From positions 53,740-117,739 of the forward strand of contig CAKOSE010000001.1 in the NCBI GenBank assembly GCA_934102055.1: a stretch of 64,000 nt of DNA, given 5' to 3'. Below the pieces are notes generated by a model. That model was given only the letters and a program-made list of their open reading frames with translations, was not told the origin of the DNA and ran no database searches. The translations under genes and the position numbers were made by a program. This DNA comes from an uncultured Bacilli bacterium. GTDB taxonomy: Bacteria > Bacillota_I > Bacilli_A > RF39 > UBA660. How positions within the stretch are numbered: the stretch's first letter is position 1; every line of letters starts with the position of its first letter. Below, in pieces: positions 18,996-49,606 of this stretch.

Positions 18996-21068
18996 ATGAA
19001 ACATGAGCATAATTTGGCTATAAGAGAGGATAGAAACAAGAAAATGAAAAAACATACAAAGGAAAAAAAGAAAAAAGTCATTGCTATATTAATTATAATT
19101 GTTTTAATCTCTTTAGCAATAGGTATCTCTTATTCAGCATGGAGATATGTTTTTACAGGGAAAGAAAATAAAATAACAACTGGAGATGTTTCAATAAAGT
19201 TTTTAGAAAGTAATACTAATGTAATTAATTTAGCAAATGCTCTTCCAGAAGATGATAATACAGGAAAAAAAGAAAAATCATTTGATTTTGTTGTTACTAC
19301 AAAAGCAACATATAAAACAGCATTAAAATATGATTTAAGTATTAAAAAATTAAGTACAGATACTGGATATACAAGTTTAAATAACAATCAAATTAAAGTT
19401 TATTTAACAGATTCTAGTAATAATGTTTTAGTGGAACCTACTTTAATAAGTAATTTAAGTGATAATTTATTATATAGTAAAACTAATAAACATAGTAGCA
19501 CTAATACTGAAGTAAATGATAAGTACAAACTAAGAGTATGGATAGATAAAAATGTTGATGCTTCAGCCTGGACTAAAGATACAAAGAATCAATATAAGTT
19601 TAAGATAGGTCTTAAGAGTGAGGAAGTAGAAATTGCATCAGGTCCTAACGAACCTGTCTTAGATGATGGAATGATACCAGTATATTATGATGAAAGCAGT
19701 TCATCTTGGAAAAAAGCAGATAGTTCTAATTCAAACAATAATTGGTATGATTATGATTCTAAAAAATGGGCTAATAGTGTAACAGTATCAAGTACTAATA
19801 GAAGTGCTTATAAAAGTGCAAGTGTAGGAACAGAAATACCAATGGATGATATTCTAACAATGCAAGTATGGATTCCGAGATATAAATATAAAGTATGGAA
19901 TTATAATGCGGATGGTACAAAAACAAGTAATCCTCAACCAATAGAAATAACATGGGAGAAAGGAACATCAAAAACAGGAGAAATAACATGTACTGATAAT
20001 ATTCAAGGTTCAAGTGGAGATGGAACAAGTGAAACTTGTAAAATAGATAATAAGGTATGTACAAATTCGACTTGTAATGGAAAAACATATACTCATCCAG
20101 CATTTACTTTCGGAAGTGAGGAAATAAAAGGATTTTGGATTGGAAAGTTTGAAGCGAGTGCAACAACTTCTTTAGATTTAACAACTATTTCTTATAAAGA
20201 GAAAAACAAAAATGAAAATGTAACACTCAATGACATTGCATATTATAGCGATGATAATGAAGATATAATAGTAAAAAAGTTGGCTCCATCAGATGCGATT
20301 TGTACCGTCCTATATAATGAAACTAATCTATATCCTTGCCCCTCTACGTTGTTTGCATTAACTAAGCCCAATATTCACAGCTGGACATATGGGACAGTAA
20401 AGCTTTATGAAGATAGTATAATGAATATGAAAAACAGTAGTAGTGGCTATGGATTAAGTACATCAACAGATACACATATGATAAAGAATAGTGAGTGGGG
20501 AGCAGTAGCATATTTATCTCATTCAAAATATGGAACATGTACAAATGGTACTTGTAAAGAAATAGGAATAAATAATAATTCTAATTATACGGGATGCGGT
20601 GCCACAGCAGGAAGTTCTGCAAGCTCAACATGTAATGCTTATAATACAACGACTGGAATGCTAGCATCAACTACACAAAATATATATGGAGTATACGACA
20701 TGAGTGGAGGAGCATTTGAATATACAATGTCTAACATAGTAAATACTGATGAATCAACAATGATACCAAGAGATTCTGGTTATACAACTACAACATATCC
20801 AGATGCTAAATATTATGATAAATATAGTTACAGTACAAGCGTTACATCAAGAAAAAGAAGTAAACTAGGAGATGGGATAAAGGAAGTATATAAAAGTAGT
20901 GATAATTGTTGGTATAGCGATTTTTCTTACCTTGCGAACTCTAGTTTTCCTTACCTCCATCGTGGGGGCCACGCAGGCAATGGTTTGCCTGCTGGAGTCT
21001 TTGACTCGAACTACGAAAGTGGTTCTTTCGCTTTGGACAAAACCTCTCGTCTCATAATAACACCGTAA
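18996..21068 (+). CDS. Membrane-anchored extracellular protein with a possible C-terminal FGE/SUMF1-like domain. The 3' end is compositionally foreign.
   Basis: N-terminal basic stretch plus a single TM (VIAILIIIVLISLAIGI). C-terminal motifs EWGAVAYL, GVYDMSGGAFEY and HRGG weakly recall the FGE-sulfatase fold. Confidence 0.45.
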   Translation: MKHEHNLAIREDRNKKMKKHTKEKKKKVIAILIIIVLISLAIGISYSAWRYVFTGKENKITTGDVSIKFLESNTNVINLANALPEDDNTGKKEKSFDFVVTTKATYKTALKYDLSIKKLSTDTGYTSLNNNQIKVYLTDSSNNVLVEPTLISNLSDNLLYSKTNKHSSTNTEVNDKYKLRVWIDKNVDASAWTKDTKNQYKFKIGLKSEEVEIASGPNEPVLDDGMIPVYYDESSSSWKKADSSNSNNNWYDYDSKKWANSVTVSSTNRSAYKSASVGTEIPMDDILTMQVWIPRYKYKVWNYNADGTKTSNPQPIEITWEKGTSKTGEITCTDNIQGSSGDGTSETCKIDNKVCTNSTCNGKTYTHPAFTFGSEEIKGFWIGKFEASATTSLDLTTISYKEKNKNENVTLNDIAYYSDDNEDIIVKKLAPSDAICTVLYNETNLYPCPSTLFALTKPNIHSWTYGTVKLYEDSIMNMKNSSSGYGLSTSTDTHMIKNSEWGAVAYLSHSKYGTCTNGTCKEIGINNNSNYTGCGATAGSSASSTCNAYNTTTGMLASTTQNIYGVYDMSGGAFEYTMSNIVNTDESTMIPRDSGYTTTTYPDAKYYDKYSYSTSVTSRKRSKLGDGIKEVYKSSDNCWYSDFSYLANSSFPYLHRGGHAGNGLPAGVFDSNYESGSFALDKTSRLIITP

Positions 21069-21071
21069 ATT

Positions 21072-21116
21072 AAAAAGACAAATTCTTAGTTTTTAAGTTT
21101 TTTGTCTTTTTTATTT
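21072..21116. terminator. Terminator-like hairpin between convergent genes
   Basis: aaaagacaaa ... tttgtctttt (10-bp stem, long loop), then a T-run. Confidence 0.4.
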
Positions 21117-21463
21117 ATTCCTATCATTGCTCCTATACAGGAAGTGGTTACTATTATTAGATAGTATAATAAACTGGAAATGGTTATGGTTTTATCGAAT
21201 GCTAGGAATGCTATTATATAGAATAGTGCAATTATTAGGACTGAGTATTTTAATCCTTCTATATATCCTTTTTTTTCTGTTTTTTTTCCTAGTAGATATG
21301 ATCCTATTAAGATAGATAGTGCTGTTACTAGTATTAGTATTGTTTTATATATATTTTTTGGGATTAGATCGTAATAATTAAAAATATTAATTATGAAGCT
21401 TAGTATTAGAATTGTTCCTAGTGTTATTCCTGTACTTATAGAATAGTTTTTTATTTGTTTCAC
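21086..21463 (-). CDS. Hypothetical 4-TM membrane protein
   Basis: 125 aa and hydrophobic. Lies between the 690-aa gene and the Tad locus on the opposite strand. Confidence 0.4.
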   Translation of the reverse strand: MKQIKNYSISTGITLGTILILSFIINIFNYYDLIPKNIYKTILILVTALSILIGSYLLGKKTEKKGYIEGLKYSVLIIALFYIIAFLAFDKTITISSLLYYLIIVTTSCIGAMIGINKKDKKLKN

Positions 21464-21560
21464 TTTATCACCTAGTAATTTATATGTAAATAGGATAAAT
21501 AATAGTAATATTGAATTGACTTTTTTCGCTATTTTTTATAAAATTAATATAGGAAAATAG

Positions 21561-21782
21561 GTGAGGAGAATGAAACGAATTAATGATAAGGGTCAAACTC
21601 TTGTTGAATATGTTTTGATAATAGCTCTTATTAGTGTCATTGCTATTTCTTTGGTAACTCTTTTAGGAGGTTATTTAAAGGACTCTATAACTAAGTCTTC
21701 TTGTGAACTTGTTGGAGAAGTCTATGTTAAGGGGGATAAGTCTGGGGAAGGATATTGTGCTGATCCAAATGAAAAGAAATAG
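21561..21782 (+). CDS. flp: Flp-family type IVb prepilin
   Basis: Basic leader, then G/QTLVEYVLIIALISVIAIS (Flp G|XXXXEY processing motif). Confidence 0.65.
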   Translation: MRRMKRINDKGQTLVEYVLIIALISVIAISLVTLLGGYLKDSITKSSCELVGEVYVKGDKSGEGYCADPNEKK

Positions 21783-22113
21783 TAAGGGACAAGCTCTTGT
21801 TGAATTTGTTATTATTTTGCCGATTATTTTAATGATTCTTTTCATAATCATTGATTTTTCTAATATTTTTTATCAGAAAAATCATTTGGAGAGTACTTTG
21901 AATGATGTTGTGGAATACAAGGAAAATGGAAAATCTAATTCTTATATAAAAGATAAGGTGAATGATTCAAGTATTTCTATATCGTATAAAAAGATTGATG
22001 ATAGTTTAGATATTAAAATAACAAAAAAGGTTAATTTGATAACGCCTTTCTCATCACTTTTCTTTGATAATCCTTTTGTTATAAAGACTGAAAGGATGAT
22101 TCTTTATGAATAA
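21769..22113 (+). CDS. TadE/TadG-like pseudopilin
   Basis: NSKGQALVEFVIILPIILMILFIIID N-terminus (TadE-like domain). ATG at 21769 (MKRNSKGQ). Confidence 0.55.
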   Translation: MKRNSKGQALVEFVIILPIILMILFIIIDFSNIFYQKNHLESTLNDVVEYKENGKSNSYIKDKVNDSSISISYKKIDDSLDIKITKKVNLITPFSSLFFDNPFVIKTERMILYE

Positions 22114-22471
22114 TAAAGGTCAAACACTTGTTTTCTTTGTGGTGTTAATACCTCTTATACTTGCTCTTTTCGCTTTTGTGATTGATTCTGCGTATATAGT
22201 AAGAGGTAATACTAAACTTTATGGAATTGCTTATTCTGCTCTTGATGATGTTGTAAATCAGGGTAAGGATATAAAAAAAGTAAAACGAGTAATAAAAGAA
22301 AATGATAATAATATAAAAATAATTGTTTTGGATAGAAATGGTATTGAACTTACTAATGAAATTACTCCTATATTTGGAAAAATTATTGGTTATGATAAAT
22401 ATAATCTTGATGTTAAACTTTATACTTCTTATGAGAATGGTAAGTATATGATAAAGGAAAAGGGGAAATAA
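22106..22471 (+). CDS. TadE/TadG-like pseudopilin (second copy)
   Basis: MNNKGQTLVFFVVLIPLILALFAFVIDSAYI. Confidence 0.55.
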   Translation: MNNKGQTLVFFVVLIPLILALFAFVIDSAYIVRGNTKLYGIAYSALDDVVNQGKDIKKVKRVIKENDNNIKIIVLDRNGIELTNEITPIFGKIIGYDKYNLDVKLYTSYENGKYMIKEKGK

Positions 22472-22473
22472 TT

Positions 22474-23244
22474 ATGAAAGCAACGAAAGGAAAGATAATT
22501 ACTATAACTTCTACTAAGGGTGGAGTAGGTAAAACTATAGCACTTTTAAATTTAGCGGGTACTTATGAAAAACTTGGATATAAAACTTTGGTGATTGACT
22601 TAGATCTATATGGTGGGGCAATAGCGACTTATCTTAATTCTAATAATGATAAAACAATATTTAATCTGGTGGAGGATTTAACTAATAATAGATATAATAC
22701 AATTGATGAGTATTTGTTTTCTTATAGTGATAAAATAGATATAATAGCCGCTCCTAAGGATCCGAGAATGGCTAGTAAAATAGATTCTAAATACATTCCG
22801 CTTATTCTTAGAAATGTTATATATAAATATGATGTTATTTTGATAGATACGACTCATAATTTAAATGAGGTAAATATAGTTACCCTTGATAATAGTGATA
22901 GTATTTTATATATGTTTACAAATGATACGTTTGATCTTAAGAATACGAAGTCTTTTATATCGATAATGAAGGATATAGGTAATGATAATTATTATACTAT
23001 TTTAAATGAATCTGTTCATCCTGGAAGAAGTAATTATTCTCTTTTTGATATAAGAAATATTATTAAAAGTAATGTGGATTTTACTATTTCGAAAAGCATG
23101 TATATAAGAAATATTGATAAATTTATCTTGGATGGAAAAATACTTATTTTTAACAAGGGACTTTCTTTTACAGATAAGCGTGAATGGGAAAAGTTAAAAG
23201 TAATTGCCAATACACTTATAAAGGATAAGAAGGGGGTAAAATAA
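22474..23244 (+). CDS. CpaE/TadZ-like ParA/MinD-family ATPase
   Basis: Deviant Walker A ITSTKGGVGKT. Located in the Tad locus. Confidence 0.65.
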   Translation: MKATKGKIITITSTKGGVGKTIALLNLAGTYEKLGYKTLVIDLDLYGGAIATYLNSNNDKTIFNLVEDLTNNRYNTIDEYLFSYSDKIDIIAAPKDPRMASKIDSKYIPLILRNVIYKYDVILIDTTHNLNEVNIVTLDNSDSILYMFTNDTFDLKNTKSFISIMKDIGNDNYYTILNESVHPGRSNYSLFDIRNIIKSNVDFTISKSMYIRNIDKFILDGKILIFNKGLSFTDKREWEKLKVIANTLIKDKKGVK

Positions 23245-24582
23245 ATGAAGAAAACACTTTCTGAGGCTTTTGAGTTAAATGAAAAAACTGTTTCTTTTAA
23301 AGAAATGCAAGCTGATGACTATGAAATATTTGAAGATAAGATTCTTCTTGATACTTTAAGAAATAAAGTTATTCAAAATATTATAGATAATGATGTTCCT
23401 GATAATGAGTTTTTAACTGAATATATAAATAATGAGATAGATGAAGCTCTAGAGGGGTATGATTTGTCAAATTTAGAAAGAAATCATATTTTTAACTTGA
23501 TAGAGAATGAAATACATGGATATGGACCGATAACGGAGTTATTAGATGATCCTAATATAACTGAAATTATGGTAAATGGACCAGATAAAATTTATATTGA
23601 AATTGATGGTAAAGTTGTAAGGGATGATTCGGTTTCTTTTATAAATGATGAGCATATTGTGAGAACAATTCAAAGAATGATACAACCTCTTGGAAGAACA
23701 ATTGATGTTGCAAATCCAATGGTTGATTCAAGACTTAAAGATGGTTCGAGAATAAATGCGGTAATTCCTCCTCTTTCTTTAAATGGACCTGTTTTGACTA
23801 TAAGAAAATTTAAAAAGAATCTAGAGACTATGGAAGATCTTTTGAGAATGGGTACTTTAACTACGTATATGGCTAGATTTTTAGATGCTTCTGTTAAGGG
23901 AAAACTTAATATACTTATATGTGGAGGAACTGGTTCTGGAAAGACAACGGTTTTGAATGTTCTTTCGTCTCTTATTAGTAATGATGAGCGTATTATAACG
24001 ATTGAAGATGCTGCGGAACTTAAATTAAAACAGGAACATGTTATTACGCTTGAGACAAGAAATATGAATTATGAAAAAGAGGGAGAAGTAACTATAAGAG
24101 ATTTGGTTATAAATTCTTTACGTATGAGGCCTGATAGAATAATAGTTGGAGAAGTACGTGGTAAAGAGGCATTTGATATGTTACAAGCTATGAATACTGG
24201 GCATGAGGGAAGTTTATCTACACTTCATGCGAATGGGCCAAAAGATGCTCTTAATAGACTTGAAACAATGGTTTTGATGAGTGGTATTCAAATACCTGTA
24301 ACTGCAATAAGAGAATATATAGAAAAAGCAATAGATTTAGTTGTGTATATAGAAAGACTTCAAGATGGAAAAAGAAAAATAGTTTCAATAAGTGAAGTAT
24401 ATAATATGAAAGATGGGGAAATTAATTTAAAAGAAATATTTAGTTTTAAGCAAAAAGGCTTAACAAAAAGTGGAGAGGTTAATGGTTCTTATATAATGTA
24501 TAAATATATGCCTAAAGTTTATAATAAGATAAAATCAAAGGGTATAGATGAAATAGATGATATATTTGAGAAGATAAAATAG
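23245..24582 (+). CDS. tadA: CpaF/TadA type II/IV secretion ATPase
   Basis: Walker [10 protein letters not shown], Asp box, Walker [11 protein letters not shown], His box LSTLHANG. Confidence 0.85.
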
Positions 24583-24598
24583 AAAGGGATGGAGTAAT

Positions 24599-25603
24599 AT
24601 GGGGAATTCTATTATATTTACTATAATACAATTTTTACTTATAATTGGACTTATTGTAGTAGCGTGTTATCTTATAAAATTTAAAAATGCTCTAGCACTT
24701 GAGAAAAGGGTAACTAGGTTCTCCATAGAATCTATTACTGATAAACCATTATCATTTTTTGATAAATTGAATAATAAATATAATAATATTATAAATAGGA
24801 TTACAAAATCACTATCAAAATCAAAGCTTTTTATATCTTATAGTAAGCGTTATGATAAGTATTTAGATAAAACTAAAATAATAAGATATAAGGCTATAGA
24901 TATAGTATCAAATAAAATATTTGTGAGTTTGGTAGCACTTATAATAACAGTTATATCTGATGTTTTGAGGGGAAAATCTTTTAGTATAATGCAAATAATA
25001 ATTTCTTTATTAGTAGGTTTTTATATACCGGATATATTTTTATTAATTAATGAAAAGAAAAGAAAAAAACGAATAGAAGATGATTTATTTAAAGCTGTTT
25101 TGATTATGAGTAATGCTTTTAAATCTGGAAGAAGTATTATGCAGGCTGTAGAAATTGTTTCAAATGAATTAGATGGGCCGATAAGTGAAGAATTTAAAAA
25201 AATGTATATTGATTTAACATATGGACTAGAACTTGATGTTGTTTTTGATAGGCTTTCAAATAGAATAAAATTAGATGAAACAAAGTATATGGCTTCTTCT
25301 TTAGTTATATTAAATAAAACAGGGGGTAACATAGTGAAGGTGTTTTCTTCGATTGAAAGAAGTTTTTTTGAAAGAAAGCAGCTAAATGATGAATTAAAAT
25401 CAGTAACAGCGTTGTCAAATTTTGTGTTTAAAATTTTAGTGGCTATACCATTTATAATATTTATCATGATTTATATACTAAATCCAGGTTATTTTGTTCC
25501 TCTTGTAACTACTATAATAGGAAAGATATTACTTATCATAATACTTTTAATTTATGTGCTTTATATAGTTATAGTAAGAAAACTAATAAGAATAAAGGAT
25601 TGA
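24599..25603 (+). CDS. tadB: TadB (GspF-like platform protein)
   Basis: Membrane protein with T2SSF-type domain (LSNAFKSGRSIMQAVEIV). Confidence 0.65.
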   Translation: MGNSIIFTIIQFLLIIGLIVVACYLIKFKNALALEKRVTRFSIESITDKPLSFFDKLNNKYNNIINRITKSLSKSKLFISYSKRYDKYLDKTKIIRYKAIDIVSNKIFVSLVALIITVISDVLRGKSFSIMQIIISLLVGFYIPDIFLLINEKKRKKRIEDDLFKAVLIMSNAFKSGRSIMQAVEIVSNELDGPISEEFKKMYIDLTYGLELDVVFDRLSNRIKLDETKYMASSLVILNKTGGNIVKVFSSIERSFFERKQLNDELKSVTALSNFVFKILVAIPFIIFIMIYILNPGYFVPLVTTIIGKILLIIILLIYVLYIVIVRKLIRIKD

Positions 25604-25607
25604 TATT

Positions 25608-26306
25608 ATGAAAAATAAAAAAAGTTTAAGTTATAGAATATATAGTAAAAAAAATTTAAAAATGGCTGAGGAAAAGACAAGTCTTTTAGGAGTTAATAAT
25701 AAACTTGATGCGGTAGGATTACTTAATACAAGACTTTTTATAAGTATCCTTATTTTTATAGTGATACTTTATTTTATAGATTTTGGTTATTTTATAGCAC
25801 CGATAGTAACATTTTTGGTATACCAGCTTTTCTTTCCTGTTCTAATAGATAGTAAGATAGAAAAAAGAAAGAAAGTGTTAGAAAAAGATTCTTTATATTT
25901 TTTTGAGATATTAGTGCTTTCTTTGGAAGCTGGTAGAAATATAAAATGTGCTATTGAAGTTACTACTAATAATATTGAATCTGAATTATCGGATGAATTT
26001 AAGAAAGTAATAAAAGATGTTAATTATGGAAAAGACTTAGATGAAGCTTTGGAAGAGTTAAAATATAGAATTCCTTCAGATACTGTAAATAATATAATAC
26101 TTAATATAAGACAATCAAATATGTTTGGTAATAATATAATAGATACAGTTTATTCACAAATAAATTATATAAGAGGAAAAAAACTTTTAGAAACAAAAGC
26201 TTATATAAGTAAAATTCCGATTAAAATAAGCGTTGTAAGTGTAGTGTTTTTTATACCTTTATTACTTTTGTTACTTCTTGGACCAATGTTAATTAGTTTG
26301 ATTTAG
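25608..26306 (+). CDS. tadC: TadC (GspF-like platform protein)
   Basis: Paralog of the previous gene (EILVLSLEAGRNIKCAIEV). C-terminal TM. Confidence 0.6.
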   Translation: MKNKKSLSYRIYSKKNLKMAEEKTSLLGVNNKLDAVGLLNTRLFISILIFIVILYFIDFGYFIAPIVTFLVYQLFFPVLIDSKIEKRKKVLEKDSLYFFEILVLSLEAGRNIKCAIEVTTNNIESELSDEFKKVIKDVNYGKDLDEALEELKYRIPSDTVNNIILNIRQSNMFGNNIIDTVYSQINYIRGKKLLETKAYISKIPIKISVVSVVFFIPLLLLLLLGPMLISLI

Positions 26307-26334
26307 AAATATCTTTTGATGTTTCTTTTTTTTG
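26305..26334 (+). terminator. Terminator after the Tad operon
   Basis: agaaatat/atgtttct stem (1 mismatch), then a T8 run. Confidence 0.45.
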
Positions 26335-26510
26335 TGTATTTTTTTAAAATTTATATACTTTGTAATATTTGGGATATAATTAGTTTTTAAAATAAATATT
26401 TCCTATATATGAATTTTTTGTTTTTGGATTAGTTCTATAAGCAAATGTGAAAATTGGTCATTTGCACTATGCTTTTAAATCATTTATAGTGTATTGCGGG
26501 AGGAATATTT

Positions 26511-28577
26511 ATGAGAAAAATTAGATGTTTGTTTATAGGAATTTTATTTATGTTTTTTGCTTTTATAGGAGTAGTTAATGCAAGTAATTACACTGGTAAA
26601 CTTTATGAGGTATATCATCCTAATTCGGGATTTACAGTCTTTGCAGAAGAAAAATACAGAAATATGGACTATAATAGTTGGATGATAAAATCAACAGTAG
26701 ATAATAGGATATATTATTGTATTGATCCTACTATTCCTTTGGAAGGATCATTTGAGGGTTCACATAAGTATATAATTGGAGAAAATAACATAAAAAAGGA
26801 AATTAATATAACAAGTGAACAGTATAAGAAAATAAATCTTTTAGCATTTTATGGTTATAAATATAATGATCGAAAGTATAATCATTCAGATAAAAAATGG
26901 TATGGGATAACTCAGGTAATGATATGGAGAGTGATGAGACCTGATCTTACTTGGACATTTAAAGAAAGTAGAGATGCTAAACCCGATAAAAGTTTATATA
27001 AGGATGAGATAAAGGAATTAAATTATTTAGTATCAAAGCATGATACATTACCAAGTTTTGTAGATCAAAAAACAAAAGATAAGGATATTAGGTTGTTATT
27101 AAATGACGAGATTACTTTAAAGGATACAAATGATACTTTGTATAGGTATTATTTAGTGTCAAGCTTGTTTAAAAAAATAAAGCTAACAAGAAGTGATTCA
27201 AGTGTTATATTAAAAGGGATAAAACAAGGCAGAGAGCAAGTTAATTTTAGTACATCAAGCTATACGGGGGATTTATTTGCTTTTCTAACAAGTAGTAATT
27301 ATCAAGATGTAGTAATTGCTGGGTATGATGGACTTCCTCATTTTAGTTTATTTGTAGATGTAGTTGGAGGAACTCTTAATATTCGTAAATTTGATAAAGA
27401 AACAAATGCAAGTCAAGGGGAAGCGACTTTGAAAGGGGCAAAGTATGAAATATATGACAAAGATAATAAGTTTGTTAAACTAGTTGAAACTGATGAAGAT
27501 GGAAAGGGCCAAACTATTTTGGATTATGGAGATTATATAATAAAAGAGAAAACCCCTCCACAGGGATATAAACTTGATCCTAATACTTATAATATCAGTA
27601 TAAGTAAGGAAAACAATGAAATTAATTTGGATGTAAAAGATGAAGTAATAAAAGGAAGAATAATAATTAAGAAAATGAAAGGAGGTTCTAAAGAAAAGTA
27701 TATAGCTGAAGAAAATGCTGTATTTGAAATATATGATGTTAATAATAAATTAGTAGATACTATAACTACTGATAAAGATGGTCTAGCACACTTAACGTTA
27801 CCATATGGTAAATACAAAGTAAAACAAATAAAAGGTGCAGATGGTTATGTTATAAGTGATGATTATGAGATTAATATTAAGCAGGAGAAGGATTATCAAC
27901 TAAATATTAAGAATAAAAAGTTATCTATAATTGAAATAACAAAACTCGATGAAGAGACTAATGAACCTATTAAGGATACATTTTTTGAAATTTATAATGG
28001 TAAAGAAAAAATATTTGAAGGAAAAACAGATGATAAGGGGAAACTTAAAATAGAAAATGTTAAGATAGGAACATACATTTTAAAAGAAGTAAAACCAAAT
28101 AAATATTATAGAAGTAATGATGAAGAGAAAGAGTTTTTAATAAGCGAAAATGGAACATATCTTGAGTTAAAAGTAAAAAATACTAGAAAAAGAGGTAATG
28201 TTACATTTTATAAAATAGATAGCTTATCTGGAAAAAAATTAGAGAATGCAAGTATAAGATTAGAAGATGATATATTAAAGAAAACTGTTTTTAAAGGTAA
28301 AACTGATAAAGATGGAAAAATATATATAAAGGATTTGGTGGCAGGAAATTATTGTTTTTATGAGGAAAAAGCTCCTTTTGGATATAAAAAAGATGAGAAA
28401 CCAAAGTGTTTTGAACTTTCAAAGGATAATGAGAATATAAATATTAGTATGGTTAATGAAAGATTAATAAGTGTTCCTAATACTTTTAAGAATGATAGTA
28501 AAGTATATGTGATTATTGGTATATTTATAGTTGTTGTAAGTTTAAGTTATATTGTTTATGTTAAACAGAATAAATAA
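26511..28577 (+). CDS. Sortase-anchored adhesin: N-terminal thioester-like domain plus 4 CnaB/SpaA-type (prealbumin-fold) repeats
   Basis: Signal peptide. YYCIDP Cys and ITQVMIW Gln-motif (TQxxIW) typical of internal-thioester domains. Four repeats ending ...KDG....L.YG.Y...E.KAP.GY. C-terminal sorting-signal architecture (VPNTF + TM + KQNK). Confidence 0.6.
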   Translation: MRKIRCLFIGILFMFFAFIGVVNASNYTGKLYEVYHPNSGFTVFAEEKYRNMDYNSWMIKSTVDNRIYYCIDPTIPLEGSFEGSHKYIIGENNIKKEINITSEQYKKINLLAFYGYKYNDRKYNHSDKKWYGITQVMIWRVMRPDLTWTFKESRDAKPDKSLYKDEIKELNYLVSKHDTLPSFVDQKTKDKDIRLLLNDEITLKDTNDTLYRYYLVSSLFKKIKLTRSDSSVILKGIKQGREQVNFSTSSYTGDLFAFLTSSNYQDVVIAGYDGLPHFSLFVDVVGGTLNIRKFDKETNASQGEATLKGAKYEIYDKDNKFVKLVETDEDGKGQTILDYGDYIIKEKTPPQGYKLDPNTYNISISKENNEINLDVKDEVIKGRIIIKKMKGGSKEKYIAEENAVFEIYDVNNKLVDTITTDKDGLAHLTLPYGKYKVKQIKGADGYVISDDYEINIKQEKDYQLNIKNKKLSIIEITKLDEETNEPIKDTFFEIYNGKEKIFEGKTDDKGKLKIENVKIGTYILKEVKPNKYYRSNDEEKEFLISENGTYLELKVKNTRKRGNVTFYKIDSLSGKKLENASIRLEDDILKKTVFKGKTDKDGKIYIKDLVAGNYCFYEEKAPFGYKKDEKPKCFELSKDNENINISMVNERLISVPNTFKNDSKVYVIIGIFIVVVSLSYIVYVKQNK

Positions 28578-29136
28578 AACCTGTGTTTTGTTATTGTTAC
28601 TTTCTTTGATAATTTTGATAGTGTGTTGTTTAAATAGTTCTTTATTTAATGCTATAACAGAAACTAAGAAAATAAATAGTTTTATAGATAATGATTATAT
28701 AATTGTTGATTCTAAAAAGAAAACACAAAGAGGAGGATTTGTTGCTTTGCTTGATGTGCCTAAGATTTCTTTGAAGAAAGGCATTTATCAATTAAATGAT
28801 AAGCATAACTCGGTATCTTATGGAATTGAAATGTTAAGTGGTTCTAGTTTCCCAGATAGGGATAATAGTACTCTTATTCTTGCTTCCCATAGTGGTAATT
28901 CAAGTGTATCTTATTTTAGAAACTTAATTTATTTGGAGAAAGGGGATATTGTGTATTTGTATTATAATGGCAATAAATATATGTATGAAATAATAGGTTG
29001 TTATAAAAAAAAGAAAGATGGATATATTTTGGTGAAAGACTTTGGGAAAGGTAGATTTATGATTTTAACAACATGTAAGAATGATGAACTTGATAAACAA
29101 TTAACTTGTTATGGAAGATTAAATGGAAAAATTTAA
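28552..29136 (+). CDS. Sortase
   Basis: N-terminal TM. Catalytic His (LASHSGNS), LTTC Cys motif and a downstream Arg. 194 aa. Confidence 0.75.
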   Translation: MFMLNRINKTCVLLLLLSLIILIVCCLNSSLFNAITETKKINSFIDNDYIIVDSKKKTQRGGFVALLDVPKISLKKGIYQLNDKHNSVSYGIEMLSGSSFPDRDNSTLILASHSGNSSVSYFRNLIYLEKGDIVYLYYNGNKYMYEIIGCYKKKKDGYILVKDFGKGRFMILTTCKNDELDKQLTCYGRLNGKI

Positions 29137-29198
29137 TCAGGACAATTGTTTTTTCTCCTTATTTTGTGTATAATTATAGTGATTTAAGGAGTGATAAT

Positions 29199-29918
29199 GT
29201 GAGTGGACATTCAAAATGGTCAACAATAAAAAGGAAAAAGGGCTTAATAGATGCAGAGAGAGGAAAAATCTTTCAAAAGCTAACTAAGGAAATATATGTT
29301 GCAGCAAAAAATGGTGATCCAAATATTGAAAGTAACCCATCACTTAGGATGATAGTAGATAAAGCAAAGGCTGCTAATATGCCTAAAGATAGGATTCAAG
29401 CTGCTATTGATAAGGCTAGTAAGAGTGCTGGTGGTGAAGACTATGAATCAATTAGATATGAAGGTTATGGACCAAATGGTGTAGCAATTATGGTGGATTG
29501 TTTAACTGATAATAGAAATAGAACTGCTTCAATGGTGAGAAGTGCTTTTACTAAACGTGGAGGTAATTTGGGTACAGATGGATCGGTTAGTTATATGTTT
29601 GAAAGAAAAGGAATTATAGTCGTTCCAAATACTTATGACGAAGATTTGATAATGAATCTTGCACTTGAAAATGATGCTTTAGACTTTGTAACATCAGATG
29701 ATTCATATGAGATTTATACGACTTTTGAGGACTTTATAAAAATGAATAAAGCCTTAGAGGATGCTGGCATAGAGAGTTTAATTATGAATGAAGTTAGATA
29801 TATACCTTCTAATTATATTTCTTTGGATGAGGCTAAAACTGAAAAAATACTTTCTCTAATAGATGCACTTGAAGATATAGAAGATGTACAAGATGTATAT
29901 CATAATTTAGAAGTTTAA
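29199..29918 (+). CDS. yebC: YebC/PmpR family transcriptional regulator
   Basis: GTG start at 29199 with an AAGGAG RBS. VSGHSKWSTIKRKK signature N-terminus. Confidence 0.85.
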   Translation: MSGHSKWSTIKRKKGLIDAERGKIFQKLTKEIYVAAKNGDPNIESNPSLRMIVDKAKAANMPKDRIQAAIDKASKSAGGEDYESIRYEGYGPNGVAIMVDCLTDNRNRTASMVRSAFTKRGGNLGTDGSVSYMFERKGIIVVPNTYDEDLIMNLALENDALDFVTSDDSYEIYTTFEDFIKMNKALEDAGIESLIMNEVRYIPSNYISLDEAKTEKILSLIDALEDIEDVQDVYHNLEV

Positions 29919-43916: not shown

Positions 43917-43950
43917 TTGGAAGAAAAAAAGCATTAGTTTTGCTTTTTAG
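43917..43950 (-). terminator. Terminator at the end of the glycopolymer cluster
   Basis: Minus-strand hairpin AAAGCA(aaactaa)TGCTTT, then a T7 run. The stop codon sits in the loop. Confidence 0.45.
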
Positions 43951-46699
43951 AATTAATAAACATATGTATAGAAAGAATAATTCCTCTATTTTTTATGTTT
44001 AGTAGGTTTCTTTTTAATCTCCATATAATGCTTTTTTGATCTTTAGAGTTATCTATATTACAAATTGGTTCATATTTTAAGCTTTTATCTAAAATATCTA
44101 TATATTTTTTGTATAAAATTCCAACTTCGTAATAATTTTTTCTAAGCTTTTCATCATTAGTTACTAGGTTAATTATTGTATCTAATTCTTCCAACTTTTG
44201 ATTGTCTGTATTTTGATTTTTATTATTTTTTTCTGTATTTGTTAAGGTGTTGTTGATTGCTAGAAAACTATATTTTTTTGATAAATTAATATATAATAAT
44301 ATATCATTTTGGTAACATTCTTCTTCTGTAAATGCTTCTTTTTTAATCATTACTGTTGATAAGTTTATATAACAATTTTTTATTAGTTCTTTAGAGCATT
44401 TTCCATTAAAAATACTAGTATTTATTTCTTTTGGAGTGTTTTCTTCGACGATGTTATAATTTGTATGAGAAAAGGTTTTATCGTCTCTTAGCATTTCTGT
44501 TAATTGGATTAATAACTTGTCTTTATGAAATGTGCTGTTTGAATCTAAAAATGATATATAATCTCCGGTTATATCTTTTATGCATTTAAGAGTTAGTTCT
44601 TGTTTATTTTTGGGTTCTTTAAATTGAAAATATTTTATTTTTTTATTATTTTTAATGTATTCTAAAAGTTTAGTATTGTCCTCGATATAATTATTATCTA
44701 TTACGATTAGTTCCCAATTAGTAAAACTTTGTTGTTCTACTGATTTTATTGATTGTATTGTTTTTTCTATATCATCATCGCAAAAAAGAATTATAGATAT
44801 TTTAAATTTTTCAAGTTCATTTTTAACGTGTTTTTCTATATATTTGATGGCTCCTTCATAGTTTGTTTTTCTAAGAGAAGTTTGAAAACTAATATCAAAT
44901 TTTAAACTTGTTCCTCTATATTTTTCTTTTATTTCTATAGGAATGTCTTCATATATTTTTATCCATAATTTATTACATTCTGGTATGGTGTTTTTATTTT
45001 TTTGTGTATCTTGATTTTCATGAACTCTATATTTGGCTAGAGGTTTATCTACATGATAAAATTTATATTTATATAAAATTTTATTCCAATATTCATAGTC
45101 TTGAGTTGTTTTATATTTTGTTTCAAATAAACCGTTTTCATCAAAGACTTTTTTTGGTATTAAAAGGGTTATACCATTTATGTTTCCGTTTATTACGGAG
45201 TATTTATCTTGTTTTATTAAGTCTCTGTGCCAGCGGATGGAACTTCTATAAATTATGCCATCTTTGTCCATTACATCGTTATCTGAATATAAAATTATAT
45301 TTTTGTCTTTTTCTTTTGCTAGATATTTTATTTGGTCTTCAATTTTTGTTTTATAATACATATCATCATGAGAGAGCCAAGAGAAGTATTCCCCTTTCAT
45401 GCTTTTTATTGCAGTATTAAGTGCTGATGCAACTCCCCCATTTTTCTTTTTTATGTATTTTATCTTGTCTTTGTATGATTTTATTATTTCATGTGTTTTA
45501 TCAGTACTTCCATCGTTAACTACTATTATTTCTATATTTTTATATGTTTGGTTAAGTGCACTATCTATTGCTTCTTTAACATAGTTTTCCCCATTATAGA
45601 CAGGGATTATTATGCTGACTAAGGGATTAAATACTTCATTTTCTTTTTTTGGATGATAGTTTTCTATAAAGTATTTAGTGCTTACGATTAGATTATCATA
45701 ATTTTTATAATTAAAGTTTGAATTATCGAAAAAGTATGAATGATATAAAGAGTGTTTATATACTTCGAGTAGATCTTTACTTATTTTTTCTAGACCATTT
45801 CTAAAATGATTTGTAAATTCTATTTTTTCTTCTTCTGTTTTTAATTTTTTAACTGAAGCGAAGAAAAATGTCAAGCAGTTGTTATAGAAAAATATTCTTG
45901 AAAATTCTTCATTTTTCTTATAAAAATACTTCATTGTTTCTATTACAGAATCCAGAGTTCCTAAGTATGAATCAAGGGTCTTACAAGATGATAATTGTGT
46001 TTGAGGATGCATTCTGTAGTATTTAAATAAATTAGGGATATATATTATTTTTTGAGATTCTTCGATGATTGGCAAAATAGCCATTAAATCATTTGCGTGT
46101 TTTCCTTTGTAAGGATGTTTTTGTAATAGTTCTTTTTTTATTATTTTGTTTGAACTCGAAGCACAAGCCCAGTGTCCCATTAAAACTTGTTTTTTTAGTT
46201 CGTGAATAGAATCTGTGTTTTTTTCTATGCTCATGGTGCTAGTATAGATATTATCTTCATAAATGGAAGCTTTTTTTATTTTTTTCTCATTATGATAAAT
46301 TGCAATATCTGATACTACAATATCTGCATTTGTTTTTAAAGCTTGATATAACATTTTTTTATAGAAGTTTTTATCTACAAAATCATCAGAGCTTTGTACT
46401 CCAATATAGGTTCCCCTAGCCTTACTAATTCCTTTTTCTAGAGTTTTAGGGCATCCTAAATTTTTTTTATTTTTGAAAATTCTTATTAGTTTTTTATATT
46501 TTTTATTTTGATTTTTCCATTTTCTTACTTTAGATAGGGATTTGTCAGTAGAACCGTCATCTATTACTATTATTTCTACGTTCCCTTTTATTCCTTTTGT
46601 AATACTATTTAAACACTCTTCTATATATTCCTCATGATTATACATTGGAATTACTATGCTTAGATCTTTCATATTTCTCTCCTTGTTTATTTTTTCCAT
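43934..46699 (-). CDS. Glycosyltransferase with three GT2 domains (921 aa)
   Basis: Three separate GT2 signatures: SIVIPMYN...VIDDGSTD; SIIIPVYN...VVNDGSTD; ISIILFCDD...IVIDN. Confidence 0.7.
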   Translation of the reverse strand: MEKINKERNMKDLSIVIPMYNHEEYIEECLNSITKGIKGNVEIIVIDDGSTDKSLSKVRKWKNQNKKYKKLIRIFKNKKNLGCPKTLEKGISKARGTYIGVQSSDDFVDKNFYKKMLYQALKTNADIVVSDIAIYHNEKKIKKASIYEDNIYTSTMSIEKNTDSIHELKKQVLMGHWACASSSNKIIKKELLQKHPYKGKHANDLMAILPIIEESQKIIYIPNLFKYYRMHPQTQLSSCKTLDSYLGTLDSVIETMKYFYKKNEEFSRIFFYNNCLTFFFASVKKLKTEEEKIEFTNHFRNGLEKISKDLLEVYKHSLYHSYFFDNSNFNYKNYDNLIVSTKYFIENYHPKKENEVFNPLVSIIIPVYNGENYVKEAIDSALNQTYKNIEIIVVNDGSTDKTHEIIKSYKDKIKYIKKKNGGVASALNTAIKSMKGEYFSWLSHDDMYYKTKIEDQIKYLAKEKDKNIILYSDNDVMDKDGIIYRSSIRWHRDLIKQDKYSVINGNINGITLLIPKKVFDENGLFETKYKTTQDYEYWNKILYKYKFYHVDKPLAKYRVHENQDTQKNKNTIPECNKLWIKIYEDIPIEIKEKYRGTSLKFDISFQTSLRKTNYEGAIKYIEKHVKNELEKFKISIILFCDDDIEKTIQSIKSVEQQSFTNWELIVIDNNYIEDNTKLLEYIKNNKKIKYFQFKEPKNKQELTLKCIKDITGDYISFLDSNSTFHKDKLLIQLTEMLRDDKTFSHTNYNIVEENTPKEINTSIFNGKCSKELIKNCYINLSTVMIKKEAFTEEECYQNDILLYINLSKKYSFLAINNTLTNTEKNNKNQNTDNQKLEELDTIINLVTNDEKLRKNYYEVGILYKKYIDILDKSLKYEPICNIDNSKDQKSIIWRLKRNLLNIKNRGIILSIHMFINSKKQN

Positions 46700-47793
46700 A
46701 TATTTTTATTGATATAGCTTGTGTAACTAATAATAATATTTAGAACAATATCTGATATATTATCTTTATCGTAGTCTTCTACTACATGACTTTTTTTAAC
46801 TCTTGATGTTGTTATGTCAATTGCGTTTATCATGGATTCTTTATCTAAATCACTCATTATTAAAGTACCAAAATCCATTCCTTCTGGTCTTTCATGGGCT
46901 TCTCTTATTGTGATTGCTGGGAAACCTAAAAGAGAAGACTCTTCGGTTATAGTGCCACTATCGGATATAACACAAAAAGCATTTTTTTGAAGTTTGTTAT
47001 ACTCGAAAAATCCTAGTGGTTTCATATAAATAATATTATCTTCGAATTTGAAGTTTAATTTTTCTATTTTTTTTCTAGTTCTAGGATGGACACTAAAAAC
47101 AATTTTTTTCTTGTACTTTTTGCTTATTTCGTTTAAGGAATTTAAAAATTTAGAAAAGTTTTTATCATTATCTATGTTTTCTTCTCTATGAGCACTTACA
47201 ACAAAATAATTGTTTTTTTCTAGGTTTAGTTCTTCTAATATTGTACTACTGTCTATTTGATTTTTATAAGTGTTATATACTTCTTTCATGCTAGAACCTA
47301 TTTTAAACACCATTTCTGGTTTTAGACCTTCGTTTAATAGATATCTTCTGGCATGTTCTGTTATTGTCATATTTATGTCGCTTAAGTGATCTACTATTTT
47401 TCTATTAATTTCTTCTGGAACTCTTTGATCGAAACATCTATTTCCTGCTTCCATATGAAAAATAGGAATTTTATTTCTTTTTGCAGATATGACTGATAGA
47501 CAGGAATTGGTATCGCCATATAATAAAATTGCATCTGGTTTTTCTTTTTTTATTATTTCATCTGATAATTTTATAACATTACCAATTGTTTCTGCGGGAG
47601 TAGTTCCTGCAGCATTCATATATATATCAGGTTCTCTTAAATTTAGTTCTTCGAAGAAGATCTTATTTAATTCATAATCATAATTTTGCCCAGTATGAAC
47701 TAATATATGATTAGTAAATTGATCTAGTTTTTTTATAGTACAAGAAAGTTTTATTATTTCAGGTCTTGTACCTACTATTGTTATAACTTTCAT
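46687..47793 (-). CDS. wecB: UDP-N-acetylglucosamine 2-epimerase (non-hydrolysing, WecB/FnlC-like)
   Basis: VITIVGTRPEIIKL N-terminus. 368 aa. Confidence 0.8.
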   Translation of the reverse strand: MKVITIVGTRPEIIKLSCTIKKLDQFTNHILVHTGQNYDYELNKIFFEELNLREPDIYMNAAGTTPAETIGNVIKLSDEIIKKEKPDAILLYGDTNSCLSVISAKRNKIPIFHMEAGNRCFDQRVPEEINRKIVDHLSDINMTITEHARRYLLNEGLKPEMVFKIGSSMKEVYNTYKNQIDSSTILEELNLEKNNYFVVSAHREENIDNDKNFSKFLNSLNEISKKYKKKIVFSVHPRTRKKIEKLNFKFEDNIIYMKPLGFFEYNKLQKNAFCVISDSGTITEESSLLGFPAITIREAHERPEGMDFGTLIMSDLDKESMINAIDITTSRVKKSHVVEDYDKDNISDIVLNIIISYTSYINKNIWKK

Positions 47794-47794
47794 C

Positions 47795-48613
47795 TTATTC
47801 CTCCTTATTTAAAAGCATCCATTCATGCATTTCTTTTACCATAACTTCGTATGATGGAATTTTAAATTTATAGGTACTAGTATTTATGAAGCTTTTATCA
47901 CACGTGACATCTTTAAAAGGAATAATATCAATATCTTTGTTAAATTCTTTTTTAAATAAATTGAGCAAATCATACTTACTTATTTTTTTATTGTTTGTTA
48001 CATGATATAAACCACTTAAATTATCTATAATTGCTTTTTCTATACTTTTAGATAATTCTAAGGTTGTTACTCCAGACCAAAAAACGTTCTTATAACCATT
48101 CACACTTTTACTACTTTCCATGAACCATTTGAATAATCCTATTCCATTTTTATTGTTATCTGGTCCAATTATGGAAGTTCTTAAAGTTAAATTATAATTA
48201 TTGTTTATTTCTCCTAAAGATTTGGTCATTCCGTAAAAGCTTTTTGCATCTTTTATGTCATTTTCTTTGTAGGAACCTTTAGTACCTTCGAAAACACAAT
48301 CTGTTGAAATGTGAATAAATTTGATATTTCTTTTTTGGCATAGTTCATCCATATAATGAGGAAAATAACTATTTATAAAAATAGCATCTTTTTTATTGTC
48401 TTCAGTATTTTTGTTTAAAATGCCTATACAATTTATTATATGAGTTGGTTTAAAGTCTTTGATAATGGTGTTTATTTTATCTATTTCTAAAGCATCATAG
48501 ATATAATCTCCATTTTTTCTATCTGTACCTTTTGCTATGTAGCCTTTACTTTTGAAATAATTTTTAACTACATGACCAAGCATTCCTTTTTCTCCGATTA
48601 CTAATATTTTCAT
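47795..48613 (-). CDS. RmlD-like sugar-nucleotide 4-reductase (WbvR-type)
   Basis: MKILVIGEKGMLG Rossmann, YxxxK (FYGMTKSLGE). 272 aa, paired with the FnlA-like and WecB-like genes. Confidence 0.6.
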   Translation of the reverse strand: MKILVIGEKGMLGHVVKNYFKSKGYIAKGTDRKNGDYIYDALEIDKINTIIKDFKPTHIINCIGILNKNTEDNKKDAIFINSYFPHYMDELCQKRNIKFIHISTDCVFEGTKGSYKENDIKDAKSFYGMTKSLGEINNNYNLTLRTSIIGPDNNKNGIGLFKWFMESSKSVNGYKNVFWSGVTTLELSKSIEKAIIDNLSGLYHVTNNKKISKYDLLNLFKKEFNKDIDIIPFKDVTCDKSFINTSTYKFKIPSYEVMVKEMHEWMLLNKEE

Positions 48614-48614
48614 T

Positions 48615-49606
48615 TTAACTCTCCATTTTTTTTAATAATTCTATAACTTCATCTACATTAAGTAATTTTGTGTTTTTTGAAGTGTATGCTTTATGCTCTT
48701 TGATTTTACCGTTACCATTTTTATAAAAATTGTTATAGTTTAAGTTTCTGTTGTCTATGGGAATTCTGTAAAAATGCCCCATGTCTTCTGCTCTTGAAAT
48801 TTCTTCTGCGGTTACTAAAACTTCATGTTTTTTTTCTCCGTGTCTTGTTCCTATTATTTTGGTGCCAACTTTACTGTTTTTATATTTTAATATAGCTTTT
48901 GCTAGAGTGTCAATTGTGGCAGCTGGTGCTTTTTGGACGAATAAATCACCTTGTTTGCCATTTTCAAATGCAAATAGAACTAAATCTACTGCATCTTTTA
49001 AGGTCATCATATATCTTGTCATACTAGGATCGGTAATAGTTAAAACTTTTTTATTTTCTACTAATTCATAGAATAATGGAATAACAGAACCACGTGATCC
49101 CATAACATTTCCATATCTGGTTAAACAAATAGTAGTTTTTGAATCATTACCTAGTTCTCTTGCTTTAGAGACTGCTATTTTTTCCATCATGGCTTTACTT
49201 ATTCCCATGGCATTTATAGGATATGCAGCTTTATCTGTGCTTAAACATATTATTTTTTCTACATTGTTTTCAATTGCTGTGCTTAAAACGTTATCGGTAC
49301 CTAAAACATTGGTTTTAACTGCTTCGATAGGAAAAAACTCACAAGATGGTACTTGCTTTAAAGCTGCAGCATGGAATATGTAGTTAACACCTTTCATGAC
49401 ACTATTTAAAGAGGCCTTATCTCTAACGTCTCCTATATAGAATTTTAATTTATCAGAATTATATTGTTTCTTAAATCGTCTTGTTTTTTTTCGTCTCTAG
49501 AAAAGATTCTTATTTCTTTTATATCGGAATTTAAAAATTTTTTTAGAACTTCATTACCAAAAGAACCAGTTCCTCCGGTTATTAATAATATTTTATCTTT
49601 GAACAT
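48615..49606 (-). pseudogene. FnlA/CapD-like UDP-GlcNAc 4,6-dehydratase/5-epimerase, disrupted by a -1 frameshift
   Basis: N-terminal fragment 49445-49606 (MFKDKILLITGGTGSFG..., RBS AAGGAGGG) stops after 53 aa. The remaining reading frame continues in the -1 frame. The junction is at a short A/T run near 49466-49470 (LR|KQYNSDKLKFYIGDVRD). Confidence 0.6.

Follow-up and report, generated by a model that had tools for sequence, protein, structure and literature searches.

A class II thioester-domain adhesin and a dedicated sortase with glutamine at the canonical arginine position in an uncultured Bacilli bacterium

How might a surface protein that resembles a covalent adhesin be fixed to its own cell if it lacks the LPXTG sorting motif and the sortase encoded beside it lacks the catalytic arginine? 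The question is raised by two overlapping genes on the forward strand of a 64,000-nucleotide stretch of contig CAKOSE010000001.1 (assembly GCA_934102055.1, an uncultured Bacilli bacterium), which we call the window. The upstream gene (26511..28577, + strand) encodes a 688-aa TIE-type adhesin with a signal peptide, a class II thioester domain (TED), four SpaA/CnaB repeats and a sorting signal. The downstream gene (28552..29136, + strand) encodes a dedicated sortase with an N-terminal membrane helix, of 194 aa if translation begins at TTG 28552 or 192 aa if it begins at ATG 28558; sortase residues are numbered here from the ATG. With the adhesin stop codon (TAA) at 28575-28577, the sortase gene overlaps the adhesin gene by 26 nt from the TTG start or by 20 nt from the ATG start.

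We favor the reading, with a probability of about 0.78, that the two genes form one module, made up of a covalently cross-linked adhesin and the sortase that anchors it in the cell wall. The adhesin itself is a new member of the known TIE, or class II TED, family. The sortase appears to be a variant type, in which histidine and cysteine are kept and the arginine is replaced by an invariant glutamine. An earlier note on this DNA gave an accurate account of the open reading frames (ORFs), the domain types, the C-terminal tail, the gene overlap and the neighboring Tad genes. It made no mention of the missing catalytic arginine, which is the most unusual feature of the locus.

The thioester domain and the stalk

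The N-terminal region of the adhesin (residues ~25-290; 26583..27380, + strand) is, judged by sequence and model, a class II TED of the BaTIE/SaTIE kind. Pfam TED (PF08341) matches residues 68-176 with 35.2 bits against a cut-off of 22. The structure prediction that the earlier note had proposed for this region, made with AlphaFold2 for residues 25-290 from 25 orthologues, has a mean predicted local distance difference test score (pLDDT) of 94.6 and gives the class II TED fold. Its sole strong Foldseek match in the PDB is the SaTIE TED, 6fx6 (E 7e-12; template modeling scores 0.63/0.69); the remaining matches are immunoglobulin-like and fall on the C-terminal sandwich insert. Family profiles reach 6fx6 by sequence as well, with E values of 5.8e-10 and 1.4e-12. 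Both the Pfam match and the fold match thus uphold the earlier identification of a thioester-domain adhesin. What defines class II TEDs is a seven-stranded beta-sandwich that sits as an insert after helix alpha3 and ahead of strands P and Q, and their bonding glutamine lies on strand Q past the insert, ~170-205 residues after the cysteine (Miller et al., 2018; PMC6194298). The window adhesin shows a cysteine motif of the [YF]C-Phi-[DE] type, a TQxxPhiW helix motif, a distal glutamine and a seven-stranded insert at ~residues 190-260 (model residues 166-236), which the model places between the helical part and the strand that bears Gln265.

Which glutamine would close the thioester? The earlier note had paired the cysteine of YYCIDP with the glutamine of GITQVMIW (Gln135). 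Both motifs are real and essentially invariant in orthologues, and retention of TQxxIW in homologues, on which the note had staked its proposal, was confirmed. However, alignment to SaTIE and BaTIE places the bonding residue farther along the chain. Cys70 (26718..26720, + strand), the predicted thioester cysteine, sits in a predicted strand (model residues 44-46), falls on SaTIE Cys296 in profile-to-PDB alignments and is invariant down to 29% identity. TQVMIW (residues 134-139; 26910..26927, + strand) sits in a predicted helix (model residues 105-118) and falls on ATQMLIW of SaTIE, the TQxxPhiW motif, whose glutamine and tryptophan make hydrogen bonds to the cysteine backbone only (PMC6194298). 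The residue that aligns with SaTIE Gln467 (chain residue Q218) and with BaTIE Gln266 (chain residue Q235) is Gln265 (NYQDVV; 27303..27305, + strand), the predicted thioester glutamine; the chain offsets were verified with BaTIE Lys297 and the numbering used in PMC6194298. Gln265 does not vary among 20 diverse sequences, relatives of 29-30% identity included, and lies 195 residues along the chain from Cys70. Known class II pairs are BaTIE Cys71-Gln266, SaTIE Cys296-Gln467 and EfmTIE86 Cys88-Gln292 (PMC6194298). One orthologue (P0102) carries glutamate at position 135 (ITEVMIW) and keeps the cysteine and the distal glutamine of YQD.

These alignments, together with the invariance of Gln265 and the seven-stranded insert ahead of it, are our reasons for assigning the domain to class II and for predicting a Cys70-Gln265 bond. 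The partner of Cys70 is almost certainly Gln265, not Gln135, and an internal, reactive thioester is probably what the adhesin uses to hold its target. In a set of ~455-aa homologues (L031-L035, 29-31% identity), the TED insert is much reduced, with ~25 residues missing, and there are fewer repeats.

Four SpaA/CnaB repeats follow the TED (~residues 291-380, 381-471, 472-560 and 561-651; 27381..28463, + strand; boundaries approximate). Pfam SpaA ('prealbumin-like', PF17802) matches the protein four times (E 5.7e-61), in agreement with the four repeats counted in the earlier note. Against the isopeptide domains of BaTIE (6fwv) the repeats give an alignment with E 5e-51, which puts K293 on Lys297, D377 on Asn373 and K388 on Lys384. 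Candidate isopeptide triads of lysine, acid and asparagine or aspartate are K293/E346/D377, K388/(Q439)/N468, K478/E526/N557 and K568/E618/N649, and the full Lys/Glu/Asn(Asp) set is conserved in repeats 1, 3 and 4. On these alignments the stalk repeats would be of the isopeptide type and not of the ester-bond type.

The sorting signal and the sortase

The adhesin ends in a predicted cell-wall sorting signal (28473..28574, + strand) made up of VPNTF (28473-28487), a hydrophobic part of 18 residues (~28506-28559) and a KQNK tail. This C-terminus reads VPNTF-KNDSK-VYVIIGIFIVVVSLSYIVYV-KQNK, and the end in full is ...LISVPNTFKNDSK-VYVIIGIFIVVVSLSYIVYV-KQNK. The earlier note had described a tripartite tail with VPNTF in place of LPXTG, and so it proved: LPXTG occurs nowhere in the protein, and the motif, hydrophobic segment and positively charged tail are kept in orthologues. 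Thr658 is invariant, Pro656 is nearly so, and the residue after the threonine varies. No other ORF in the window combines a P-x-T motif with a membrane segment and a basic tail.

We tallied the motif in 147 distinct family sequences, with a slightly permissive search that makes the counts approximate. P4 is V in 117, I in 11, M in 5 and L in 3; P3 is P in 140; P2 is D in 98, N in 35 and K in 8; P1 is T in all 147; and P1' is G in 45, H in 29, S in 15 and F in 11, with fewer of N, Y, K, L and M. P-x-T is kept in 140/147, and the family departs from canonical LPXTG at both ends, with leucine at P4 in 3/147 and glycine at P1' in ~30%. The family signal, as these sequences present it, is [V/I]-P-[D/N/K]-T-x, and glycine after the predicted cleavage site would not be required. 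VPDTG is known from the pneumococcal pilin RrgC, where it serves as the sorting signal; it was the only VPNTF-like motif to turn up in the literature searched, and versions without glycine did not appear there. Related loci show further variation. The C-termini of the adhesins at L038, L039 and L040 carry VPSTF, VPNTF and VPNTE, respectively, and homologues of 33-37% identity at L023, L027 and L029 end in N-P-(D/Y/E)-T-(K/G). At L031-L035, VP(D/N)TG is followed by an unusual aromatic-rich tail that is not a clear membrane helix.

The product of the overlapping downstream gene is recognizably a sortase. It matches Pfam Sortase (PF04203) with 50 bits, which bears out the earlier description of a dedicated 194-aa sortase (192 aa from the ATG) overlapping the 3' end of the adhesin gene, and it passes the general NCBIfam sortase model TIGR01076 (43.5 bits; cut-off 39.35). 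The class models NF033745, NF033746 and NF058671 all score below cut-off (class C, 46.2 against 160; class D, 36.1 against 165; NF058671, 38.3 against 140). The AlphaFold2 model of the enzyme has a pLDDT of 83, and a Foldseek search with it returned 133 matches at E<=0.001, of which all 50 listed are sortases; structures of classes C, D, A and E score alike in this search, which thus assigns the enzyme to no class.

A His-Cys-Arg triad is common to all sortase classes (review PMC11231552). In the window enzyme, His111 (LILASHSGNSSVSYF; 28888..28890, + strand) and the catalytic cysteine, Cys173 (ILTTC; 29074..29076, + strand), placed at the end of beta7 by alignment and model, are both present. 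At the start of beta8, where the catalytic arginine is expected, the column holds Gln181 (DKQLTCY; 29098..29100, + strand). The model agrees with this placement, in that Cys173 ends one strand (167-173) and Gln181 starts the next (180-191). A MAFFT alignment with S. aureus SrtA pairs His111 with His120, Cys173 with Cys184 and Gln181 with Arg197, and the family profile puts its glutamine on the arginine of B. anthracis 2kw8. All three residues, Cys173 within L-T/I-TC, are among the invariant positions of an alignment of 26 sortase relatives of 35-85% identity (alignment A3).

The substitution is also visible by comparison with sister enzymes. Where the adhesin homologue is most distant (L020, L021, L025 and L030), the neighboring sortase reads TC-x5-R-F/L-I/V-V; those of the other loci read TC-x5-8-Q-L/F-V/I-V, with the glutamine at the same gapless position as the sister arginine. 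A HMMER search of 1.84 billion cluster representatives returned 4,699 sortase-family hits at E<=0.001; the stricter limit of E<=1e-30 left 626 clusters. Among the best 150 of the 4,699 hits, all 145 new sequences carry glutamine at the arginine site. We found no published description of sortases without the catalytic arginine, in a literature whose coverage was incomplete. The sortase protein gave only weak partial matches (24-37% identity) in PLSDB, to annotated class C and class A sortases of Bacillus, Clostridium and Lactococcus; at that sensitivity, therefore, sequenced plasmids include no member of the Gln-type family.

We considered whether the choice of glutamine or arginine is tied to glycine or another residue at P1' and rejected the idea, as Arg-type sisters serve MPNT[NFS] and IPNTK and Gln-type enzymes serve both VPDTG and VPNTF. 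Separately, L036 encodes a second, 284-aa sortase (1077-1928) with canonical His, Cys and Arg (LTLSTCSNNNKRVVV), which lies 6 kb upstream of the adhesin/Gln-type pair and beside sporulation genes.

The window sortase looks functional, since His111, Cys173 and Gln181 are invariant, a sortase fold is predicted and the family is large. A broader proposition, which we hold tentatively and would place a little short of even, is that there is a large clade of Gln-type sortases of ~200 residues, without the arginine, which are active, dedicated to class II TED adhesins often carried on conjugative elements of uncultured gut Firmicutes, and able to read V-P-x-T-x without needing glycine. If this were true, the clade would be a seventh functional sortase type, with altered chemistry and relaxed leaving-group specificity. 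The triad arginine is treated as universal and is used in models of mechanism and in inhibitor design, and a large natural Gln-type clade offers a direct test of what it does. A sortase tolerant of many residues after the scissile threonine could also serve sortase-mediated protein ligation.

Gene pairing and the weighing of explanations

A scan of one genome per species yielded 35 adhesin loci. A sortase ORF lies directly 3' of the adhesin gene in at least 27 of them, usually overlapping it, and most loci without one are contig ends or a single frameshifted copy. At L031-L035 the shorter adhesin is still paired with a Gln-type sortase, of 169-183 aa. When six further Gln-type sortases were looked up, every one (6/6) had a TED/SpaA gene immediately upstream with overlapping ends. 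Four of these six pairs (L039-L042) lie amid conjugation genes, with neighbors that include TrbL/VirB6-like (TrbL_4), DUF8208, VirB4/TraC-like, type IV secretion system (T4SS) pilin, TraG-type P-loop, single-stranded DNA-binding and N6/N4 methylase proteins. The conserved unit is the adhesin together with the sortase. The L039-L042 adhesins are larger, at 832-1004 aa. At L018 (9995-12502) the adhesin frame does not stop after the sorting signal but continues into a long hydrophobic stretch, and only a partial sortase match comes next; this copy is either a frameshifted, decaying gene or an assembly error.

In the mechanism we propose, the 688-aa precursor would be exported via Sec. The class II TED would fold and spontaneously form its internal Cys70-Gln265 thioester, shielded by TQVMIW and a long 'specificity loop', and the four SpaA/CnaB repeats would make a rigid stalk, stabilized at least partly by Lys-Asn/Asp isopeptide bonds. 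The signal composed of VPNTF, membrane segment and KQNK would hold the precursor in the membrane until the co-expressed small sortase cuts after Thr658, via Cys173, and hands the protein to a peptidoglycan amine. At the surface, the thioester would react with a nucleophile of a partner, probably a lysine amine, to give a covalent link. Candidate partners are host mucus, a host protein or the surface of another cell.

Several points weigh against this reading. What the data show directly are the identities of the domains, the conservation of the motifs, the pairing of the genes and the exchange of arginine for glutamine. Formation of the thioester and isopeptide bonds, the cleavage site, anchoring to the wall and the target are all things that we infer, and our picture of the host's taxonomy and wall comes solely from record titles and neighboring genes. 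In repeat 2, an invariant glutamine, Gln439 (KVKQIKG, 27825-27827), replaces the catalytic glutamate of repeats 1, 3 and 4 and of BaTIE; the repeat still keeps the conserved Lys388 and Asn468 positions. Three loci (L023, L027 and L029) have no adjoining sortase. Finally, sortase activity cannot be assumed, because the arginine common to all classes is absent and no other arginine is invariant anywhere in alignment A3. In the three loci without the sortase the next gene encodes a ~180-aa, multi-pass-looking membrane protein, and these may represent a different anchoring arrangement.

The missing arginine, in the canonical position and elsewhere in A3, is also where the most pointed alternative begins. 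The Gln-type sortase could be catalytically impaired, or mainly a protease, and the adhesin could be held in the membrane by its C-terminal helix or released, not linked to peptidoglycan. Glycine, the usual residue after the scissile bond, shows no conservation, and a class II TED adhesin that does without a sortase exists, namely TIEpLS20 (PMC8092201). Yet the histidine, the cysteine, the TLxTC-like strand and the P-x-T of the substrate are all strictly conserved, and hundreds of clusters retain the gene pair and its overlapping frames. A dead enzyme is hard to reconcile with such retention of catalytic residues, substrate motif and gene pair. Moreover, sister sortases that do bear the arginine serve homologous adhesins with the same kind of motif. 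S. aureus SrtA in which Arg197 is changed to citrulline reportedly keeps its activity, a sign that a neutral donor of hydrogen bonds can be enough; nothing relevant to this turned up in the literature searched. We therefore regard an impaired enzyme as unlikely and continue to favor an adhesin anchored by its partner sortase.

Alternatively, the sortase could polymerize the adhesin into a pilus-like fiber, or couple it to a different pilin, as class C enzymes do. The best partial NCBIfam score (46 bits) is indeed to class C, V-P-D-T-G is the RrgC pilin signal, and SpaA repeats resemble pilin domains. That score is nevertheless far under the cut-off of 160, and the best PDB sequence matches are to class D (4d70, 2.4e-15; 2kw8). 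The enzyme is short (192 aa) and is without the class C lid region and C-terminal membrane helix, there is no second pilin gene at the locus, and no pilin-motif lysine of the YPK type was found in the adhesin; polymerization thus seems very improbable. We give equally little credence to a functional tie with the Tad system, in which the adhesin and sortase would share one adhesion island with it and might, for instance, supply the Flp pilus with a tip or accessory adhesin. The window does hold Flp-like, two TadE-like, TadZ, TadA, TadB and TadC genes (21561-26306), tadC, on the same strand, ends 204 nt before the pair begins, and L001, L004, L006 and L013 have the same gene order. These four are, however, the only ones of the 35 loci with Tad genes upstream; the others, including those with up to 10 kb of upstream sequence, have none, and in L006 ~2 kb separates tadC from the adhesin gene. 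Elsewhere the pair sits between ftsH and rpsF-ssb-rpsR (L036), among unrelated genes (L037) or in the conjugative settings of L039-L042. The earlier note had set the Tad and sortase/adhesin systems side by side in one island. The adjacency holds, but an island and a conserved coupling do not: GC content is flat across the window (0.25-0.30), the flanks carry housekeeping functions (LepA, HemN, YebC), and the Tad neighborhood, found in so few loci, is a feature of one lineage. The window copy of the adhesin/sortase module is chromosomal and kept across its lineage, with no T4SS genes nearby.

Surroundings, host and comparison with known systems

The adhesin gene has a GGGAGG ribosome-binding site (26498-26503), 8 nt ahead of its ATG. 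The gap after tadC also contains a candidate promoter, TTTGCA-18-TATAGT (26461-26490), within a start region at 26461..26510 (+ strand). A scan of 26200-29400 for promoters and terminators found one weak promoter-like site ahead of the gene and matches no more numerous than in shuffled sequence. A promoter of the gene's own is only plausible, because the match is no better than chance in AT-rich DNA. Rfam detected no regulatory RNA 5' of the adhesin or Tad genes (21000-29400, E<=1). The first 24 residues (26511..26582, + strand) form a putative Sec signal peptide, read off the sequence and not taken from a predictor, with cleavage between GVVNA and SNY; VNA or VDA at this site is kept across alignment A1 of orthologues.

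More than 120 full-length adhesin orthologues were collected, of 680-707 aa and 40-52% identity, all from uncultured organisms. NCBI names one of them 'SpaA isopeptide-forming pilin-related protein [Bacilli bacterium]', and the records of many lack a TED hit. The metagenome-assembled genomes (MAGs) behind the 35 loci bear such titles as 'uncultured Tenericutes', 'Mycoplasma sp. CAG:611' and 'uncultured Bacilli', which we take to denote the RF39 group of reduced-genome gut Bacilli. Close copies of the locus also occur at L001 (CAVFIB010000029.1), L003 and L010, on contigs filed under Bacteroidaceae, Lachnospiraceae and Muribaculaceae MAGs. These filings look like binning errors, given a GC content of 26-27% and a Bacilli-type gene content.

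A cell wall to which the adhesin could be joined is very probably present, despite the 'Tenericutes/Mycoplasma' labels of related MAGs. On the - strand, 43934-63797 is a large cell-envelope polymer cluster, with TagF-like CDP-glycerol glycerophosphotransferases (49683-52397 and 56291-57442), a UDP-GlcNAc 2-epimerase (MnaA; 46687-47793), two 'sugar-transfer associated' ATP-grasp genes (61012-63231) and several GT2 glycosyltransferases. The window also holds a gene for an LtaS-like sulfatase, and on related contigs there are genes for a Mur ligase and for sporulation. In a published survey, a wall with meso-diaminopimelate peptidoglycan is predicted for most RF39-type Bacilli (PMC10868615). The envelope genes of the window, the genes of the related contigs and this survey together are our grounds for a walled host.

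Other features of the neighborhood deserve brief mention. Directly upstream of the Tad cluster, 18996-21068 (+ strand) encodes a 690-aa protein with one N-terminal membrane helix, for which tblastn found no match covering >=40% of its length at any of the 35 loci, not even at the four syntenic ones, where the remainder of the block is retained. No prepilin peptidase gene was recognized in the Tad cluster (21086-22471). A 125-aa membrane protein encoded on the opposite strand (21086-21463), ahead of the Flp-like gene, is kept in L001, L004, L006 and L013. The Flp-like and first TadE-like ORFs, as listed, overlap by 80 nt, so that one of them probably starts later. Genes 3' of the sortase are yebC, a ThiF-like gene and the LtaS-like gene. 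As listed, the yebC ORF (29106-29918) begins at a TTG inside the 3' end of the sortase gene; judged by the conserved N-terminus of YebC (VSGHSKWSTIKRKK), the true start would be a GTG near 29199, and the overlap is probably not real.

If our reading is correct, a covalent-adhesion protein with a TED that Pfam barely detects is conserved in reduced-genome gut Bacilli that databases list under 'Tenericutes' or 'Mycoplasma'. The earlier note had suggested the C. perfringens Cpe0147-type architecture as a comparator. CpTIE/Cpe0147 is likewise a TIE-family surface protein with an N-terminal TED, but its TED is of class I, without the beta-sandwich insert, and its stalk is built of ester-bond domains; the window adhesin is of class II with isopeptide-type repeats, and CpTIE/Cpe0147 is not among its sequence or fold matches. 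A closer relation is seen with the SaTIE TED of S. aureus (6fx6), which has a slipknot fold and in which the cysteine, TQxxPhiW and the bonding glutamine all align with the window TED at ~15% sequence identity. SaTIE carries ester domains besides, unlike the window adhesin.

BaTIE of Bacillus anthracis (BA5258/BasC; 6fwv) shares the layout and length scale of the window adhesin, from signal peptide and class II TED through CnaB/SpaA repeats to the sortase signal. Even the numbering is almost identical, with Cys71, Gln266 and Lys297 in BaTIE and Cys70, Gln265 and Lys293 in the window protein. The repeats of the two align strongly, and the TEDs only weakly by sequence. BaTIE has three repeats and LPATG, with no dedicated sortase reported in PMC6194298, whereas the window adhesin has four repeats, VPNTF and its own Gln-type sortase. 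The best sequence matches of that sortase are C. perfringens SrtD (4d70), the class D enzyme of B. anthracis (2ln7) and B. anthracis 2kw8. Class D sortases are, like the window enzyme, small, with a single N-terminal membrane helix and no lid, and, like the window family, they accept a residue other than glycine after the threonine (LPNTA). The window enzyme differs from them in scoring far under the cut-offs, in having glutamine for arginine, and in a motif that begins with valine and varies after the threonine.

TIEpLS20 (p34), encoded by the conjugative plasmid pLS20, also joins a class II TED to Cna-type repeats and serves conjugation (PMC8092201). Placement of the pairs at L039-L042 in conjugation loci fits this published role. 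Such placement also prompts one to ask what is bound by the chromosomal copies. TIEpLS20 works without a sortase and lacks a sorting signal (PMC8092201), whereas the present family combines P-x-T with a partner sortase. The repeated occurrence of the module in conjugation loci links it, as for TIEpLS20, to adhesion between mating pairs.

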